From IMG/VR virus record IMGVR_UViG_3300028549_000365, positions 158,082 through 222,081 of that record: a stretch of 64,000 nucleotides of DNA; one strand, given 5' to 3'. The position numbers and the translations under genes were made by a program. This document shows, in pieces, positions 55,102 through 64,000 of the stretch; the first letter of the stretch is position 1; each line of letters opens with the position of its first letter. Source of the stretch: a virus (lineage: Duplodnaviria; Caudoviricetes). The notes below the pieces were generated by a model. It made no database searches. It was not told the DNA's origin and worked only from the letters and a program-made list of their open reading frames with translations.

Positions 55102-56193
55102 ATGGGTGTTTGGAAGTTTAATAAAGACGGGACAATAAGTAATGGTTCTATGGCTATTTCATTTGACGACATAATGAAAGCTGTATTATCTAGTAATACA
55201 GTCACAGGCGAGGTTAACGTCAGTACGATAGGTGAACCTTTAACACATAACAATCTAGTATATATGGATCAAACTACGGGAAAAATATTTAAAGCCGTGT
55301 ATAACATAGGAGCACCTAATCAAAAGCAAAATCTATTAGGAGTATATAGATATGTAAATAACAAACATTACGTTGTATATAATGGTTTACTTGCTAACTT
55401 TGGTACAAACTTAGTACCTGGAGCTATTTATAATTTATCAAATGAACTAGGTAAAGCTACTTATAATAAAATGTATACAGGTGTTAAATTAGGTAGAGCT
55501 GTTAGTACTACAGATCTATTAATAAGTATAGATGGTAATATTGATATGATAGTACAATCAGCTTACGACACAACTATAACTAATGGAGTAACTGATAGCG
55601 GTATTACGCTTACAGAAGAAACAGGTACAATGAGTGCTAAGTTTAATAAGAAAACATTTGATCTCTCTATTCCAGCGGCGGTATTGTTCTTTAGAGTTGG
55701 TGACGTAATCGGTAAATTTGACTTCGCTACAGAATACACTGGTGATGAATTTGTAATAGAAATAGGTACAGCTATATATAGTGGAGTGTTCAACGAGAAC
55801 CAAAATGCAGTTAACCCAACGGTATTGACACTAGTCGGTGGCGGTGTGGTTGAAGAACCTGTGGAACCAGAAGAACCTGTAGATCCTGTAGAGCCAGAAG
55901 AACCCGCAACGGCGTATAACACTAGTGTAAATAACAACGCTAACGCAGCTGGTATAAGCATGGTATCTGACACAACAGCTGTTATAGTTCTTAACTTTGA
56001 TAGTAGAGCTTATGATTTATCTACACCAGCTGAAGTTATGTTCTTCCAAGCAGACGGTTTAAAAGTTAAATTAGACTTAGCTAGTGAGTATAAAACTAAA
56101 CTATTCGAATTCATATATAACAATGTTACATATGTTGGTACATTCGCTAAAAATGAAAGTTATGCTAACGCAACTGTATTAACTGTTAAATAA
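55102..56193 (+). CDS. Putative virion decoration/fibre-associated protein with two copies of a ~75-aa beta domain
   Basis: Cement/fibre-like N-terminal half; two FD..[TA]YDLS.PA.V.FF...K.D.A.EY....F......Y.G.F domains separated by an EEPVEPEEPVDPVEPEEP linker. Confidence 0.55.
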   Translation: MGVWKFNKDGTISNGSMAISFDDIMKAVLSSNTVTGEVNVSTIGEPLTHNNLVYMDQTTGKIFKAVYNIGAPNQKQNLLGVYRYVNNKHYVVYNGLLANFGTNLVPGAIYNLSNELGKATYNKMYTGVKLGRAVSTTDLLISIDGNIDMIVQSAYDTTITNGVTDSGITLTEETGTMSAKFNKKTFDLSIPAAVLFFRVGDVIGKFDFATEYTGDEFVIEIGTAIYSGVFNENQNAVNPTVLTLVGGGVVEEPVEPEEPVDPVEPEEPATAYNTSVNNNANAAGISMVSDTTAVIVLNFDSRAYDLSTPAEVMFFQADGLKVKLDLASEYKTKLFEFIYNNVTYVGTFAKNESYANATVLTVK

Positions 56194-56203
56194 GGACTAA
56201 ATA

Positions 56204-57361
56204 ATGAGTAATATAATTAATATTCCAAGTGGTATTTCTGTATTAGGAAATAGTTTCGATGGAACAGTAGATTTATCTACAGATGTTAACAGTGATATAG
56301 ATTTCTATAAAACTCTTAAGAACGGTAGATGGGCGAGTTGGACTAAGGGTGCCAGTGTAGCATTTCAAGGACTAACAACAATTGATAAAGGTATAGGGTA
56401 TGTTGTCAAAGCTAGTAACAACACTAATATAGCTATACCAGGAGTTCCATTAGATATTAATACACTTAACTTACCTTTAGGTTTGACGATGTTGGCTATA
56501 CCATTTGATAACTTTAATTTAAGCGGCGGTGTATTACCTAGAATGGAAGTTTCGTCTATGAAGACACTTGTTAATGGTGTATGGAAATCTTGGATAGCTG
56601 GTTCACCAGAGTTTGCGCAAGGATTCTCTACACTATCTAACACTAAAGGTTATCTAGTTAATATAAATAAAGTATATAGTAGCTATTTAGATAAAAATAA
56701 TAAGACAGTTAATACTGGTGTTCAAGTAGGTAAGAAAACACTTATAGAAACACCTGTTAATAAAGATCTTATAAGTGAGATAGATGGTATAGGGTTACAA
56801 TATAGTATAGTAGGTTTAGACTACTTAGGTGTTGTGTCTGGTGTGTTAGATAAAAAGATTATGTATTTTATGATAGGTGTAGATAGAATAAAATTAGAAT
56901 TCCCAGCTGAATATATAGGTAAAAAGATTACTATACAACGTGATGATGTAACTATACAAGATATGGGTGTTATAACTGAAGGGTTTGTACCTACTGATAT
57001 TATTGATTATGGTTTATTAGGGGAAGGTGAGATAGTAGATTATGGTATCATAAACGAAATACAAACATTAACTAACATCGATTATGAAGTTACTTTAGTA
57101 GAACGTAATGATGTAAACGACCCAGTGACTGTTATTGATGTTATTAGTGAAGATATTTTAGATATCATGTACGATACTATATCGTTCGATCAATTAGGTA
57201 TTATGAAGATTATGAATATTATATTAGCTGGTAATAAGACTAGAGTTAGTTTTTACCCTGAGTACGAAGGTAGACCTTTTACGGTGTTGAAAAATGGTGT
57301 TAAATACACTGGTGTATTCCAAGAGTCTATACTAGAGTATATAACTTTACAAACTGCTTAA
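56204..57361 (+). CDS. Putative virion protein: two W.SW..G...QG...GY domains plus two ~75-aa beta domains
   Basis: Internal repeats are visible in the translation; paralog of 57395-58405. Confidence 0.55.
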   Translation: MSNIINIPSGISVLGNSFDGTVDLSTDVNSDIDFYKTLKNGRWASWTKGASVAFQGLTTIDKGIGYVVKASNNTNIAIPGVPLDINTLNLPLGLTMLAIPFDNFNLSGGVLPRMEVSSMKTLVNGVWKSWIAGSPEFAQGFSTLSNTKGYLVNINKVYSSYLDKNNKTVNTGVQVGKKTLIETPVNKDLISEIDGIGLQYSIVGLDYLGVVSGVLDKKIMYFMIGVDRIKLEFPAEYIGKKITIQRDDVTIQDMGVITEGFVPTDIIDYGLLGEGEIVDYGIINEIQTLTNIDYEVTLVERNDVNDPVTVIDVISEDILDIMYDTISFDQLGIMKIMNIILAGNKTRVSFYPEYEGRPFTVLKNGVKYTGVFQESILEYITLQTA

Positions 57362-57394
57362 TAAGCATTAGTTAAATAAAAATAAGGATAAAGT

Positions 57395-58405
57395 ATGTCA
57401 AAAATTTACAGTGTATCACAAGGTGTTTCTACTATAGGAAATGTTATAAACAAAGATCAAGTTATTAGTGAACTTAATAACAGTAATATAGATTTTCTAA
57501 AAACGTTAAATAACGGTGTGTGGAAATCTTGGACTAAAGGCGCTGATGCCGCGTTCCAAGGTTTTGATAATATTAACAAAGGTAGAGGTTATGTTATTAA
57601 AGCAGGTGCAGCTACTTCGTTCGAAATAGTAGGTGACACTATCAATGCTAATCAAATTCCTGTTTCTACTGGTATGTGTATGTTAGCGTTCCCATATAGT
57701 GCTAGACCAATTGGTGATGGTTATATCCCTAGAATGAAAATGGGTATTATTAAAACTATTAACAGTGGTGCATGGGGTTCTTGGGTAACTGGTACTCCAG
57801 ACGGTATGCAAGGATTTACTGCACTAGATGATAGTAAAGGTTACGTATGTAACGTTGAATCACTACACGGTTCTTTAATAGCTGCTACCGCAGTTGATAA
57901 TAACGAAGGTGTTAGATTTAATATTTCTAATACATCTGTATCTAACGGTGAAACAGCACAAGGTGTTAGTTATACTGATCCATATGGTATTGGAACATTA
58001 AGTTTTGATAGTGTAACATATGATATCTCTAACCCAGGTTTGATTATGTTCTTTAAAGTTGGAACTACTTTAGCTAAGTTAGACTTTGCTCCTGAACTAT
58101 TAGGTGTTGATTTCTATGTAACAGTAAGTAGTGTTACATATAGAGGCGTGTTTACAGAAGAAAATGATTCTGCTTCAGCTATAGAAATTATAGAAGTCGT
58201 AGATGTAAGCGCGTTAGAATTAACATATACTCCTAAAACATTTACACCAGGTGTTTATAAAGAGATGAGAATAACACTTGGTTCTATCAATGGTGTTATT
58301 GAATACGCTTCTGAATACGCAGGTGAAGAATTTAAAGTATGGAAAGATGGTAAAATAGCGTCAGGTACATTCCAAGAGACTGATGTTACATTAACATTAG
58401 CTTAA
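57395..58405 (+). CDS. Putative virion protein, paralog of 56204-57361
   Basis: KTLNNGVWKSWTKGA..AFQG...KG.GYV.K matches KTLKNGRWASWTKGA..AFQG...KG.GYV.K; two C-terminal beta domains. Confidence 0.6.
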   Translation: MSKIYSVSQGVSTIGNVINKDQVISELNNSNIDFLKTLNNGVWKSWTKGADAAFQGFDNINKGRGYVIKAGAATSFEIVGDTINANQIPVSTGMCMLAFPYSARPIGDGYIPRMKMGIIKTINSGAWGSWVTGTPDGMQGFTALDDSKGYVCNVESLHGSLIAATAVDNNEGVRFNISNTSVSNGETAQGVSYTDPYGIGTLSFDSVTYDISNPGLIMFFKVGTTLAKLDFAPELLGVDFYVTVSSVTYRGVFTEENDSASAIEIIEVVDVSALELTYTPKTFTPGVYKEMRITLGSINGVIEYASEYAGEEFKVWKDGKIASGTFQETDVTLTLA

Positions 58406-58413
58406 CAATATAA

Positions 58414-58446
58414 GTTATAACAAGTAGTTATGCTACTTGTTATAAC
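58414..58446. terminator. Hairpin upstream of the fibre gene
   Basis: gttataacaagtag-ttatg-ctacttgttataac. Confidence 0.5.
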
Positions 58447-58479
58447 ATTGGTTTATTTGATTATAAAAAAGGAGAAATT

Positions 58480-61400
58480 ATGGACAAAGCTGTTAAAAGA
58501 CACCGAGGAACTACGGAAGAACACGCTAACTATGTTAGTGGTGTAGAAGGTGAGATAACTGTAGATACTAGTAAGAAAACGTTAGTACTACATATGGTCG
58601 CTGAACAAATACCTATGGGTAGACAAGCTGATTTAGACGTTATATCGGGTATGGTAGATGTGGTTAAAGAACCTACTAATAAATCTACTATAGTGCTAGA
58701 AGATAATAAAATAAAATTTAAGAATACAGCTGATGTTGAAAGTATACATGATATAAGCAATTTTGTAAATACAGCGAGTGCTGATTACGATGTAATAACT
58801 GGAGAGGTAGTTGATAGTTCTATAGAACTAACACTAGCTGAAGGTAATGTTAAACACTCTATAGATTTAACAGAAGTTATAGGTGGTGTAGTTAATGCTG
58901 ATACTATAGCTGATATGGGGTTTAGTAAAAGTGATGTTAGTAATGTTGAACCATTCAATATACCTGTTAAGTACAAATATACTGTTCCTTATTTTGAAAA
59001 TAAACAAGTTGGTGTAGATGTATACGGAAATAGTGTTAAGTTAGACGACGTAAATATAACTTTAACAGAAATGTTAGAAGTATTACCAGTAGCAATTACA
59101 GCTATGAACACTCAGAAACAGTTATTATTAGATATACAACCTATGTTAGTGGAAGCTAGTACTACTGTAGATGATATAGCTAGATACGCTTTCGGTATGA
59201 ATATACATACTAAACTAGTAGAATTAGATATTATTGCTAGCGGAGCGATTTATAATGAAGTTAGTTTATTACAATTCTCGAGTGACAGTACTAATGTAGC
59301 CGGTATGCATATTTTTCAAATCGGTACTTATTATATAGTTACATCACAAGATATACAATCTAACACATATGGTATAGGAAGAGTTACAGCTGCTACATCT
59401 ATACGTAAGCTATCCGACTATAGTGAAAATGACGGAACAGGGTTAACATTAGCTAGAGCTAACATCTTATTACCAACTATAGATTTAGCTATATCAGATA
59501 TAGATGGTTACATAGCTAGCTTTGAAGAAGTACAGTTTAAACTAACTACATTGATAGGTTATATTAAAAAGTATTCTTTATATAAAAATAACTTCCCTTG
59601 TAAAGTATCTGGTATTTACACTACTAAAGAGATGGCGTTAACATATCTACCAGTAGCTATATATGCTATGAATAAACAAGACGAGATATTACATGTTGTT
59701 AAAGAGCTAGTTACTGAAGCTAGTATAATTGTGGATGATACAGCTAGAGCTAATATAGCTATGGAAATATATACGTTATTAGCTAAGCTTGATGGTGTAG
59801 CGACGCAAACAAATTATAATGGAATACAACTTTTACAAAATGGAGAAAGTGGGAGTGGTTCAACAGGTGTTGCTGATACTTTAACTTTCCAATTAGGAGA
59901 GAGTTCAACAGATGTTATTAACACATCGAACGCTATTCAATCTAATACGAATGGACTAGGTTCTACAAATCCAGTAAATGGTGTTTATACTTTAGTAACA
60001 TTGAAAACACATACAATAGATTCTGGAGAGGATTTAACAAAAACTAGAGCAATGAATTATTTGGAAGTACTTGATAATGCTTTAACAGAATTAAATACAA
60101 TACGTTCTAACTTCGAACTAACTCAAAACAAGCTATTACTTGTTATAGAAAATAAGTTAAAATATCATGTACCAGGTAAGTTACATTGTAATATTAGTAA
60201 TTACAATATGGATGTTAATTGTGATATAGCAGATTGTGTTATTACACCTATGGTTGCTATAGAAGCTATGGAACGACAAAAACAGTTATTACTAGACATA
60301 GAACCTATGTTGACGGAAGCTAGTAATACTGTAGATGATGTAGCTAGAACAGCTATAGCTGTTAAAATTTATGCTAAGTTAGTAGAATTTGATAGTATAA
60401 GTGACGTAACTAGTTATAATGGTGTTATGTTATTGGAATCTCTTAACGGTAGTGGTGTAGGATATACTTATTTTAACATAGGTAATTATAATAATATTTT
60501 AACTTTTAAAGGAATTTTTAGATCGAATACAGATGGATACGCAGTTGCTAATGGTTTTAATACATTAGCAAAATTAAAAATAAGAACAGCGCAAATGGAT
60601 GAAAATGGTGTAACTGGACTTACTCAGGATAGAGCTATAGGATTTTTACAAACTATACCTATCTCTATAAGTGAATTAGATATTATTAAAGGCACTTATT
60701 TAACATTAAAAGATAAGTTAGAAATCATAGCTTTAAATGCTGTTAAATACTACAATGGTAGAAACATTAACTGTCATATTAACGATGATGTTTGTACTCA
60801 GTATGATGTTGCATCAGTATTACCAACAGCTATATATGCTATGAATAAACAGAAACAACTATTACTAGATATACAACCTATGGTTATCGAAGCTAGTACT
60901 ACTGTAGATGATACAGCTAGATATGCTATAGGTATGAACATACATAGTAAACTAGTAGAGTTAGATAGTATAGCTAGGGACACTACTTATAATGGAGTTA
61001 GTTTATTACAAGATAGTCAGACAGATTTCGATGCTAGTGGTATGATAGAGGTTAAGATAGCACACGAAGTAGTTATTAATACAAATATTAATATGGAATG
61101 TAATACTTATAACTTAGGAAAAGGTTTAGGTGTTTTTATTAATTTACAAACTTTAATTACATTAACTGAAAATGATGGTAGCGGAACAACAATAGATGAT
61201 ATGATAAACCATATACCAGTTATAGACAAAGCTATGTTAGATATAAATAACTATATAAGTAGTTTTGAACTAACTCAAGATCAAATTGAAGTAACATTAA
61301 CCAATATGTTATCATTTGATTTTAACGCGTATAAAATACCATTTGAATGTAAAGTTAATAATGTTGTTGTTAACAGTGAAACTGTGTTAGATGTATTACC

Positions 61401-64000
61401 AACTGCTATATACGCTATGAATAGTCAAAAACAACTATTACTAGATATACGACCTATGTTAGTAGAAGCTAGTAATACTGTAGACGATACAGCTAGAGCT
61501 AGTATAGCTATGAACATACATACTAAACTAGTAGAGTTGGATAGTATAGCTAGTAACACTATTTATAACGGAGTCAGTTTATTACAAAAAGCAAGTGATA
61601 ATAAAGGTGATGCTGACGTACATACTTTTCAGATTGGTAACTATAATATATATACTAGACCTGACATACAAAGTAACACCGTAGGTATTGGTAATATAAA
61701 TATAGCATTTTGTATTGAGCAGTTAACAGAATACACTATAGGCGACGGAACATCTTTATCACAGTCGATTTCAGCTGATTATGACGGTGTGTTGATTAAA
61801 GCTATATCCGATATAGATGGTCACCTAGCTAGTTTTGATTATACACAAAGTAGACTTATCGAAACTATTGAAATACATCATTCATTAGAAGGTATAACAG
61901 TTAGTACTAAAGTTAATGACGCTGTTACAGATGTTAAAACAACTGCAAGTATTATTCCAACTGCCATATACGCTATGAATAGTCAAAAACAGTTATTACT
62001 AGATATACAACCTATGGTTATGGAGGCTAGTGTAACTGTAGATGATACAGCTAGAGCTAGTATAGCTATGAATATCAATAAGAAGTTAGTGGAGTTAGAT
62101 AACATAGCTAGTCAAACTAATTATAATGGTAAGACGTTATTGCAAGCAACAGCCTCTTCTAGTTCAGCGGCTTCGGCTTTAACATTTCAAGTAGGAGAGA
62201 ACAGTAGCGATACTATAGCAACTAAAGGAACAATACATTCGAACACAACAGGATTGGCATTAAGTTCCACTTTGAATTTATCTGATTTGAAAGCAGCAAC
62301 GATTGGTGATGGAACTTCGTTAATTATTTCTGACGCAATAACATTTCTGACTACAATAGATTTAGCTTTAACAGATTTAAATACTATGCGTTCTGATTTT
62401 GAACTAACTCAAAATAAGTTACTTACTATTATAAATCAACATCAATACTTAGAAGGTGCTACTGTAGCAACTACTGTCGATGGTGTTGTTACGGATGTTA
62501 AAACTACATCTTGTGTATTACCCGTAGCTATACTAGCTATGTTGTCTCAGAAACAACTGTTAATAGACATTAAACCTATATTAAAAGAATTGACTAACGA
62601 ATATATGGATGCAGCTATTAGTGCTAGCTTAACAGCAATAATACACGGTAAGTTAATGGCTTTAAACTATATAGCTAATTCAACTTATTATGGTTATGAT
62701 ATAATGTATCTTTTACAAAGTGGTTTAGATAACCCAGATGCTAGATCAGCTATAAGTGTAGTTATTGATAATATAACATATACTACAGTTGGTAGTATTC
62801 AATCTAATACGACTAGATTAGCATCTTCTTCCCCTACACTTGATTTAAGTACATTGAAAACGGACACATCTGGAAGTACTGTTTTAACAACAACTAATTC
62901 AGGAACATATTTAGAAGTTATTGATTTAGCTATTTATGATTTAAATACATTTATTAATAGTTTTGAAACAACACAAGTTTCTATAATGACTGCTTTAAAA
63001 CCGTATGTTATAGATTATACAAATAAGAAAGCTACATATGGTTATAACTTAGTTAACGATGTAGTTGTTAGTAATAGTGAAGTAGTATCTTATTTACCAA
63101 CTGCTATTTTAGCTCTTGATAAACAAGAAGATATATTACATGTTGTTAATGAGCTAGTTACTGAAGCTAGTATAACTGTAGATGATACAGCTAGAGCTAG
63201 TATAGCTATGAATATCAATAAGAAGTTAGTGGAGTTAGATAGCATAGCTAGTCAAACTAATTATAATGGTATTCAACTTTTACAAAAAGGAGAAAGTGGT
63301 ACTGGTGCAGGAGGTGTTGCGGACACTTTAACTTTTCAATTAGGAGAAAGTTCAAAAGATGTTATTACTACATCAAATACTATACAATCTAATACAAATG
63401 GATTGGCTTCAAGCGCACCATTGTCAAATTTATCTACACTAAAATCAGATACATATGGTGATGGCACAGGCTTAACTGTATCTTACGCTACTAGCTATTT
63501 AAGTGTAGTAGATATTTCTTTAAATGATTTGAATACACTACGTTCTAATTTTACTAGTGTTCAAAATCAAATTGAAGATATATTAGGTATAAGATATGAG
63601 ATAGTATTTGGTACTAAAGGTAAGAAAGGTGTATCTTATCCAACTGTTGTTTATGAAAATGTTATCACTACCACACCAACTGTTAATAGTTTGTATAAGA
63701 ACGGTAATAATTTATATTACAATACAGAACTAGGTAACATACAACTAGGTAATAAAGTTAATAATGTTAAAAATAACATAGCAGCTGGTGATTATCACAC
63801 AGTATTTCTACTATCAGACGGTACTGTTAAGTCAGTTGGTTATAATGACTTTTGTCAACTAGGAGATGGTACTACTGTATCTAAATCTACACCTGTAACT
63901 GTAAGTGGTATGTCTAACTGTGTTGGTATAGAGGCTGGTGAAGATCACACAGTGTTCCTACTAGCAGATGGTACTGTTCAAGCAGTTGGTTATAATAACT
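58480..64000 (+). CDS. Giant tail-fibre-like protein, partial (>=1840 aa): Mtd_N-like N-terminus, eight tandem flagellin D1-like domains, RCC1 repeats
   Basis: ATG 58480 after AAGGAG; hand translation has no stop to the window end. N-terminus KRHRGTTEEHANYVSGVEGEITVDTSKKTLVLH; repeats such as ELDNIASQTNYNGKTLLQ...LTFQVGE...IDLALTDLNTMRSDF..TQN; C-terminal AAGDYHTVFLLSDGTV..VGYN..QLGDG. Confidence 0.85.
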   Translation, partial: MDKAVKRHRGTTEEHANYVSGVEGEITVDTSKKTLVLHMVAEQIPMGRQADLDVISGMVDVVKEPTNKSTIVLEDNKIKFKNTADVESIHDISNFVNTASADYDVITGEVVDSSIELTLAEGNVKHSIDLTEVIGGVVNADTIADMGFSKSDVSNVEPFNIPVKYKYTVPYFENKQVGVDVYGNSVKLDDVNITLTEMLEVLPVAITAMNTQKQLLLDIQPMLVEASTTVDDIARYAFGMNIHTKLVELDIIASGAIYNEVSLLQFSSDSTNVAGMHIFQIGTYYIVTSQDIQSNTYGIGRVTAATSIRKLSDYSENDGTGLTLARANILLPTIDLAISDIDGYIASFEEVQFKLTTLIGYIKKYSLYKNNFPCKVSGIYTTKEMALTYLPVAIYAMNKQDEILHVVKELVTEASIIVDDTARANIAMEIYTLLAKLDGVATQTNYNGIQLLQNGESGSGSTGVADTLTFQLGESSTDVINTSNAIQSNTNGLGSTNPVNGVYTLVTLKTHTIDSGEDLTKTRAMNYLEVLDNALTELNTIRSNFELTQNKLLLVIENKLKYHVPGKLHCNISNYNMDVNCDIADCVITPMVAIEAMERQKQLLLDIEPMLTEASNTVDDVARTAIAVKIYAKLVEFDSISDVTSYNGVMLLESLNGSGVGYTYFNIGNYNNILTFKGIFRSNTDGYAVANGFNTLAKLKIRTAQMDENGVTGLTQDRAIGFLQTIPISISELDIIKGTYLTLKDKLEIIALNAVKYYNGRNINCHINDDVCTQYDVASVLPTAIYAMNKQKQLLLDIQPMVIEASTTVDDTARYAIGMNIHSKLVELDSIARDTTYNGVSLLQDSQTDFDASGMIEVKIAHEVVINTNINMECNTYNLGKGLGVFINLQTLITLTENDGSGTTIDDMINHIPVIDKAMLDINNYISSFELTQDQIEVTLTNMLSFDFNAYKIPFECKVNNVVVNSETVLDVLPTAIYAMNSQKQLLLDIRPMLVEASNTVDDTARASIAMNIHTKLVELDSIASNTIYNGVSLLQKASDNKGDADVHTFQIGNYNIYTRPDIQSNTVGIGNINIAFCIEQLTEYTIGDGTSLSQSISADYDGVLIKAISDIDGHLASFDYTQSRLIETIEIHHSLEGITVSTKVNDAVTDVKTTASIIPTAIYAMNSQKQLLLDIQPMVMEASVTVDDTARASIAMNINKKLVELDNIASQTNYNGKTLLQATASSSSAASALTFQVGENSSDTIATKGTIHSNTTGLALSSTLNLSDLKAATIGDGTSLIISDAITFLTTIDLALTDLNTMRSDFELTQNKLLTIINQHQYLEGATVATTVDGVVTDVKTTSCVLPVAILAMLSQKQLLIDIKPILKELTNEYMDAAISASLTAIIHGKLMALNYIANSTYYGYDIMYLLQSGLDNPDARSAISVVIDNITYTTVGSIQSNTTRLASSSPTLDLSTLKTDTSGSTVLTTTNSGTYLEVIDLAIYDLNTFINSFETTQVSIMTALKPYVIDYTNKKATYGYNLVNDVVVSNSEVVSYLPTAILALDKQEDILHVVNELVTEASITVDDTARASIAMNINKKLVELDSIASQTNYNGIQLLQKGESGTGAGGVADTLTFQLGESSKDVITTSNTIQSNTNGLASSAPLSNLSTLKSDTYGDGTGLTVSYATSYLSVVDISLNDLNTLRSNFTSVQNQIEDILGIRYEIVFGTKGKKGVSYPTVVYENVITTTPTVNSLYKNGNNLYYNTELGNIQLGNKVNNVKNNIAAGDYHTVFLLSDGTVKSVGYNDFCQLGDGTTVSKSTPVTVSGMSNCVGIEAGEDHTVFLLADGTVQAVGYNN
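59083..63590 (+). repeat. Eight tandem flagellin-like coding repeats (186-200 aa period)
   Basis: Repeat starts (LP.AI.AM motif) at 59083, 59647, 60247, 60820, 61396, 61954, 62518 and 63094. Confidence 0.9.
63778..64000 (+). repeat. RCC1/BLIP-II-type repeats (first two, truncated by the window end)
   Basis: IAAGDYHTVFLLSDGTVKSVGYNDFCQLGDGT...TPVTV and IEAGEDHTVFLLADGTVQAVGYN. Confidence 0.85.

Follow-up and report, generated by a model that had tools for sequence, protein, structure and literature searches.

Eight tandem flagellin D1 units in a fibre-like protein of an uncultured phage

What use could a phage have for eight flagellin domains strung together in one protein chain? This question is raised by a long fibre-like gene at the end of the IMG/VR virus contig IMGVR_UViG_3300028549_000365. 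The window analysed here is the last 64 kb (64,000 nucleotides, nt) of this 222,081-bp contig, the window end being the contig end; positions prefixed L009 are positions on the virus contig itself, counted from the contig start. The gene occupies 58480..63999 on the forward (+) strand with 1840 codons, and its 3' end is open at the contig end and continues at the contig start. Its product joins an Mtd_N-type N-terminus to eight tandem, truncated flagellin D1 units and further to RCC1 blades, and with modest confidence we take it to be a long virion fibre in which these three parts would serve as anchor, shaft and receptor-binding tip. The initial annotation of the window had described an uninterrupted frame of at least 1840 amino acids (aa) running off its end, and the frame is indeed open throughout. 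The two other forward frames of 58480-63999 contain 233 and 283 stops, and the chance of 1840 stop-free codons at this base composition is about 1e-71.

The repeat borders were set at residues 195, 385, 583, 775, 967, 1153, 1341 and 1533, with the end at residue 1725. A repeat profile run against the whole phage genome found exactly eight domains of 220-270 bits each, all in this open reading frame (ORF), and their lengths of 186-198 aa agree with the eight repeats of about 190 aa first described. Searching Pfam with the whole protein gave Flagellin_N in six stretches (E 6.6e-40, 136.8 bits). When the repeats were searched one by one, as the initial annotation had proposed, five of the eight passed the Flagellin_N cut-off alone (28.6-34.8 bits): R2 (residues 385-582, 59632..60225, 31.8 bits), R4 (residues 775-966, 60802..61377, 30.0 bits), R5 (residues 967-1152, 61378..61935, 28.6 bits), R6 (residues 1153-1340, 61936..62499, 29.5 bits; the repeat used for modelling) and R8 (residues 1533-1725, 63076..63654, 34.8 bits), all on the + strand like the remaining three. 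R3 (residues 583-774, 60226..60801) reached 16 bits, which is below the cut-off, and 239.6 bits with the repeat profile. R1 (residues 195-384, 59062..59631) and R7 (residues 1341-1532, 62500..63075) gave no Pfam match alone and are recognisable only via the other repeats, with 269.6 and 219.5 bits to the repeat profile, respectively, and 41-44% identity to R6. R1 is 52% identical to R5, while R3 and R7 are among the most diverged. The repeats are 30-55% identical to each other at the protein level and 58-71% at the DNA level, hence we consider the internal duplications to be old. R2, R6 and R8 had been singled out as closest to real flagellin; they do have the shortest paths in the tree described below, but by Pfam bits R4 ranks with R6.

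The fold of the repeats is that of flagellin D1. Against all PDB sequences the repeat profile matched 52 chains, every one a flagellin or flagellin homologue. The best of these, FlaA (6X80), gave separate D1 matches on the N side (residues 71-172) and on the C side (residues 453-537), and in a 304-aa Bacillus flagellin, which has D0 and D1 only, the profile aligns end to end with residues 70-257. We modelled R6 with AlphaFold2 using the other repeats as alignment, and obtained a predicted local distance difference test score (pLDDT) of 83.8 and a predicted template modelling score (pTM) of 0.81, with helices at 6-33, 37-59 and 131-168 and a beta-hairpin at 83-95. In the Foldseek search of the PDB with this model the best 49 matches were all flagellins, most with template modelling (TM) scores by query of 0.6-0.7, and the shape search of the ESM Atlas returned flagellin clusters only, with TM up to 0.74. 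The structural comparison that the initial annotation had called for thus led, for R6, to flagellins exclusively.

Each unit is a truncated D1. It comprises the second half of helix ND1a, helix ND1b, the beta-hairpin, a short connector and roughly two thirds of helix CD1, counted from its start. All Flagellin_N matches begin at profile position 61-76, positions 1-60 are never matched, and the repeats align from about flagellin residue 70 onwards; no part of the phage contig matches Flagellin_C (PF00700) at E <= 1. Judged by these alignments, not one of the eight repeats has either D0 segment or the first half of ND1a. The absence of the D0 termini was correctly noted from the beginning, and the D1 layout proposed together with it holds for ND1b, the hairpin and CD1, which are all seen in the R6 model, but of ND1a only the C-terminal half is present. 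The linkers were different from what had been described; instead of beta-rich stretches of about 35 aa we find about 20-25 aa after CD1, forming one beta-hairpin in both AlphaFold2 models. In the second of these, a tandem model (pTM 0.51), both domains fold, R5 with a D1-like fold, and the short beta-hairpin lies between them. The inter-domain geometry of this model is untrustworthy because the MAFFT alignments of repeat pairs were shifted in register. D1 without D0 is a stable, soluble and elongated domain. The D0 segments are needed for polymerisation and export of flagellin, and as they are missing here, export by the flagellar type III system and filament assembly of this protein are unlikely.

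To which flagellins are the repeats related? When 1.84 billion representative proteins were searched exhaustively with the repeat profile (HMMER), 557 matched, and the inspected ones were ordinary flagellins. The best three (P0002, P0003 and P0004, with 150, 143 and 134 bits) are canonical flagellins of 290-297 aa with both D0 termini, and R6 shares 43% identity with P0002 across 152 aa (E 5e-33), the hairpin-CD1 segment included. P0002 lies on a bacterial contig whose GlyQ is 89% identical to that of a Campylobacterota metagenome-assembled genome (MAG) and 85% identical to that of an Arcobacter MAG. Searching genome contigs with P0002 alone gave nothing; the relatives in genome contigs came from the flagellin alignment A2 and not from this single-sequence query. 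The genomes with close relatives of the P0002-type flagellins are almost all Arcobacteraceae (Arcobacter, Malaciobacter and Poseidonibacter), and the highest genome scores to the repeat profile were found in Arcobacter-labelled MAGs (155-163 bits, up to 162.7). In the maximum-likelihood tree, which was built from 53 D1 segments, all eight repeats group together in a clade of their own (support 100/99) with a stem of 0.74, and this clade groups with P0002-P0004 (support 96/86). As the repeats are one clade beside those flagellins, the simplest history is that an Arcobacteraceae-type flagellin was captured a single time, lost its termini and was then amplified internally. The flagellin relationship and the guanine-cytosine (GC) content of about 30%, which fits this lineage, make a member of the Arcobacteraceae the likely host of the phage, as we infer from these data. 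The GC content of the fibre-like gene is about 30-32%, and the rest of the window is alike.

Two observations were made on the bacterial side. On the contig of P0002 (L010:10001-15539) four flagellin paralogues of 292-293 aa are arranged consecutively ahead of a Maf-type (Maf_flag10_N/MptE-like) gene, and because of this arrangement the donor lineage likely has a filament of multiple flagellins, which is probably glycosylated. Further, three contigs (L094, L101 and L103; CAMCYD0100000xx) of the MAG 'Helicobacter pylori PMSS1 isolate MiH-14oct19-106' carry three short Arcobacteraceae-type flagellin genes, whose products are 62-67% identical to P0004. It looks as if the label of this MAG is wrong, or the bin mixed.

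To see what the repeats have kept, we compared them with 79 Arcobacteraceae flagellins, in which 34 D1 columns show a conservation of 90% or more. At these columns the repeats still have 49% of the flagellin residues. Seventeen positions are unchanged in six or more of the eight repeats, among them A10, A13, M14, Q17, L21, Y63-N64-G65, L68-L69, F84 and G87, and these look like core and turn positions. Another 12 of the 34 are replaced in all eight repeats, mostly polar ND1a residues (Q8, D11, K12, E16, S18, N19, D22 and others). The motif EAS.TVDDTAR is common to the repeats and absent from flagellins. We read this as a probable loss of flagellin-specific surface, along with the gain of a constraint of their own.

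The soundness of the assembly was examined with Logan contigs from one microbial-mat run, which is probably the source sample, so that the comparison is not independent of the assembly and is silent on the start, the end and the expression of the gene. The Logan contigs tile the entire ORF at an even 8-13x, equal to the depth of the upstream phage genes, and one of them carries upstream phage genes together with the ORF's first 600 bases. In this comparison nothing marks the assembled gene as a chimera. A minor joint (depth 4.8) leads from 61232 in R4 back to 59512 in R1, nearly in register and with 22 unmatched letters, and another Logan contig has a loose end of 255 bases before 61210. This joint and loose end could stem from a variant with another number of repeats, from a relative of the phage in that sample, or from a chimera made by the assembler.

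At the N-terminus, residues 8-38 (58501..58593, +) hold the Mtd_N-type motif seen in the initial annotation. Pfam PF18454 gave 26.3 bits on residues 1-194, equal to its curated cut-off, and 28.8 bits in the genome scan, and there is a weak match to the tail protein family phrog_9648 (E 3.7e-4). Residues 39-194, ahead of R1 (58594..59061, +), have no significant Pfam match. They are overlapped by a weak PHROG match, phrog_19577 'minor head protein' (E 3.4e-4), and resemble weakly the N-terminus of a 581-aa paralogue described below (27% over 94 aa, E 0.016). A feature search of the ESM Atlas with residues 1-194 returned nothing usable.

The RCC1 blades announced for the C-terminus were recovered as well, with matches to Pfam RCC1, RCC1_2 and WD40_RLD. 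The first of them lie at 63772..63999 (+) and the remainder at L009:2-676. Both the RCC1 parts and the N-termini of the long protein and its paralogue match PHROG 'tail protein' families. The last 137 bases of the contig (window 63864-64000) equal its first 137 (L009:1-137) with two mismatches, one of which alters a residue, and the overlap sits within RCC1 blade repeats of 150 nt. Joining end to start yields a protein of 2019 aa with the stop at contig base 676, so that the full ORF, whose recovery had been recommended, comes to at least 2019 aa if the 137-nt overlap is joined. We regard the joined C-terminus as provisional, because it has five blades where the 581-aa paralogue has seven, and because the overlap lies inside blade repeats and contains two mismatches. 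RCC1 blades may be absent from the assembly at the join, and the protein probably has at least about 2,000 residues with one or two further blades. The IMG/VR record is listed as linear with a CheckV completeness of 83%; the genome may be circularly permuted yet incompletely assembled at the contig ends.

The next gene after the join (L009:972-2717) encodes the 581-aa paralogue, which has a seven-blade RCC1 propeller, a similar N-terminal motif and no D1 array. Its N-terminus weakly matches the same PHROG tail-protein family as that of the long protein, and a homologue search with it gave only generic bacterial RCC1 proteins. Relative to this paralogue the D1 array looks like an insert between anchor and tip, and the paralogue may be a short counterpart of the long fibre. 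The adjoining genes at L009:3385-4788 and L009:4887-5861 share an N-terminal motif and have weak matches to PHROG 1446 (minor tail protein), and may likewise encode fibre-like proteins. The gene that follows this group, L009:5944-7338, encodes a protein of 464 aa that has a NADAR domain at its N-terminus (E 6e-17).

On the 5' side, the sequence has a strong AAGGAG ribosome-binding site at 58469..58474 (+), 5 nt before the ATG at 58480. A terminator-like 14-bp inverted repeat followed by a T-rich run is found at 58414..58446 (+), and looks like the terminator of the upstream gene, which has its stop at 58403-58405. Three co-directional genes (363, 385 and 336 aa) occupy 55102-58405 directly 5' of the long ORF and are candidates for fibre assembly or attachment partners; an IMG/VR pattern search with the 336-aa protein found no relative. 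Elsewhere in the window two pieces of RNA polymerase beta were detected (phrog_3015, E 3.4e-130; phrog_3295, E 1.3e-91). The split genes for a multisubunit RNA polymerase beta, along with the 222-kb contig, indicate a phiKZ-like jumbo phage.

The reading of the array as a shaft derives mainly from the 581-aa paralogue, which has like ends without the array. In such a fibre the Mtd_N-type end would anchor the protein to the particle, and the eight tandem truncated D1 units, each a three-helix bundle with a beta-hairpin, would give an extended shaft of 40-50 nm if the units are extended, as estimated from helices of 28-42 residues per unit. The RCC1-type beta-propeller at the far end would bind the receptor, a role we assign to it from its domain type and position, and the short paralogue would present the same type of tip close to the particle. 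On this reading the phage would have acquired the D1 module in a single event from a D0-D1-only flagellin of its host's lineage; D0 and the first half of ND1a were removed, and the unit was then multiplied within the gene and diverged under its own constraints.

Several points weigh against this reading. The Mtd_N score is borderline, only at the threshold, and the three upstream genes at 55102-58405 have no Pfam or PHROG match. The joined protein has five RCC1 blades compared with seven in the paralogue. In the tandem model (pTM 0.51) it is uncertain how neighbouring domains are oriented to each other, hence a straight rod goes beyond what this model supports. The protein is also a singleton, so conservation across phages is unusable as support. 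Further, a pure spacer role leaves unexplained why a flagellin core was used over the usual fibre module. The initial annotation had spoken of a covalently concatenated flagellin-mimic rod on the virion; eight linked D1 domains without D0 are indeed present in one chain, while the rod shape and the presence on the virion are suggested by the domain order and the neighbouring genes.

The main alternative is that the D1 units recognise the host filament, lying along it or intercalating as a covalent protofilament mimic. The module comes from the D0-D1-only flagellin lineage of the probable host, so D1 would be exposed on the filament, and its eight copies, of 186-198 aa each, give the array a regular period. 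Flagellin fragments that contain D1 but not D0 are also known to pack axially in crystals, like a protofilament, which counts in the same direction. On the other hand, most of the filament core is built from D0 and the lower half of D1, neither of which the repeats have. The 12 conserved D1 positions replaced in all eight repeats, most of them polar ND1a residues, and the long stem branch to the repeat clade (0.74) also count against it. The RCC1 tip is separate and looks dedicated, and we know of no flagellotropic phage fibre that is flagellin-like. We therefore hold flagellum binding to be unlikely, and the more specific version, in which the eight-unit array is a covalent copy of a protofilament that grips or slides along a D1-surfaced flagellum with an axial repeat matching the filament lattice, to be distinctly so.

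Each repeat is a recognisable flagellin D1, the donor-type locus has a Maf gene beside four flagellin genes and the presence on the virion is itself a matter of interpretation, and from this one could imagine a non-virion decoy that titrates FliW, FliS, the FliD cap or Maf glycosyltransferases, or disturbs host motility. We find this highly improbable. The FliS chaperone holds the C-terminal D0 (Flagellin_C) region in solved flagellin-FliS complexes, and this region is absent; the N-terminus is of the phage-fibre type, the propeller is common to the neighbouring fibre-like paralogue, and an eight-unit protein of 2,000 aa would be costly as a decoy. Maf also enters the idea of a glycan-display scaffold, where host Maf-type glycosyltransferases would decorate the D1 units and give the fibre a coat of host flagellar sugars for camouflage or adhesion. 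Flagellin loci of the donor lineage include Maf, and in the repeats the loops that lead from ND1b to the hairpin are rich in Ser/Thr, but no Maf-type gene (PF01973) was found in the phage contig and the D0 termini are absent, and we give this idea very little credence. There is finally the concern that host flagellin DNA was misjoined to phage DNA, as raised in the initial annotation, or that a repeat was collapsed or expanded in assembly. The gene does lie at the end of a metagenome contig, the Logan contigs break at several repeat borders and show the one minor alternative joint, and the run they come from is probably the source sample. Against this stand the divergence of the repeats, which at 58-71% DNA identity are too different to confuse an assembler, their separate clade on a long stem, and a depth that matches that of the upstream phage genes on the same Logan contig. 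Moreover no repeat has D0 while every host flagellin does, a single frame runs for 1840 codons without stop, and the GC content is the same as in the remaining phage. Mis-assembly is therefore very unlikely, and of all the explanations considered we give it the least weight.

We return to the long virion fibre and ask whether anything like it has been seen before. The initial annotation did not recognise the architecture from any described phage, and our searches agree. PHROG has no family matching the whole protein, tblastn of the whole protein against INPHARED (50,697 phage records) gave no match, and no long homologue of residues 1-1760 turned up in a word-based comparison with 5.8 billion proteins. 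Among the viral protein models of BFVD there was no fold match at E <= 0.001, and pattern searches found no relatives either in IMG/VR (with R6, the N-terminal 194 aa and a four-repeat alignment) or in JGI metagenome contigs. Among the best 150 of the 557 matches in the 1.84-billion-protein search there was no other tandem D1 array. An apparent second array, P0097 (2206 aa, 10 stretches), turned out to be an unrelated cadherin-like repeat protein in which only the short 'FELTQ' motif matches. The literature holds no report that we found of a fibre built from flagellin domains; a 'putative flagellin-like protein' is named in passing, without detail, in gut phage genomes (PMC10607447).

Thus no virus protein with a flagellin fold was found among 50,697 phage genomes, IMG/VR, BFVD and the PHROG families, and the present gene shows that the stable, elongated flagellin core can leave the filament context, be multiplied and serve as a building block. 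The capture from host to phage is, in addition, a pointer to Arcobacteraceae as the probable host family of this uncultured jumbo phage. Should the array bind flagella, it would represent a new principle of receptor recognition, subunit mimicry, undescribed for any virus. If it is purely a shaft, it would be a natural rod of D1 units, of interest to engineers who already use flagellin scaffolds.

Of the known systems, the closest in sequence and fold of D1 are the D0-D1-only flagellins of Arcobacteraceae, with B. subtilis Hag (5WJT, 6GOW) and C. jejuni FlaA (6X80) as solved analogues. Unlike the Arcobacteraceae flagellins, the repeats are without ND0, the first half of ND1a and CD0, and the conserved polar ND1a residues are replaced; moreover there are eight copies per chain, fused to a phage N-terminus and RCC1, on a phage genome. 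With Mtd of Bordetella phage BPP-1 and the Mtd_N fibres the present protein shares the N-terminal motif and the order of attachment, middle and binding domains, whereas the middle and C-terminal parts are unrelated: Mtd has a beta-sandwich and a C-type lectin fold there, the present protein eight D1 units and an RCC1 propeller.

A phage-borne flagellin homologue is known in FliC-P of the TldR-carrying temperate phages, which is reportedly a complete flagellin that replaces that of the host. In contrast to FliC-P, the present protein has no D0, and its flagellin domain occurs eight times within a protein of the fibre type. The TldR-linked, flagellin-carrying phages are reported to remodel the host flagellum (PMC13418256; bioRxiv 10.1101/2025.07.22.666180). 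The p5 protein of Sphingomonas sp. A1 (2ZBI, 3K8V; PMC9751261) is an example of a flagellin fold outside the filament, and its chains were among our sequence and fold matches, but p5 is a bacterial, single-copy protein of ordinary flagellin length and not a virus protein. To the tail fibres of flagellotropic phages such as chi, 7-7-1 and Campylobacter phage F341 (PMC10399903, PMC8310070, PMC10877375) the likeness lies only in a possible binding to the filament; there is no sequence relationship, as judged by the absence of a whole-protein PHROG family and of tblastn matches in the 50,697 phage records. That phage fibres are modular is well known; what is new here, and unprecedented in our searches, is a proposed shaft module captured from the flagellin of the host.

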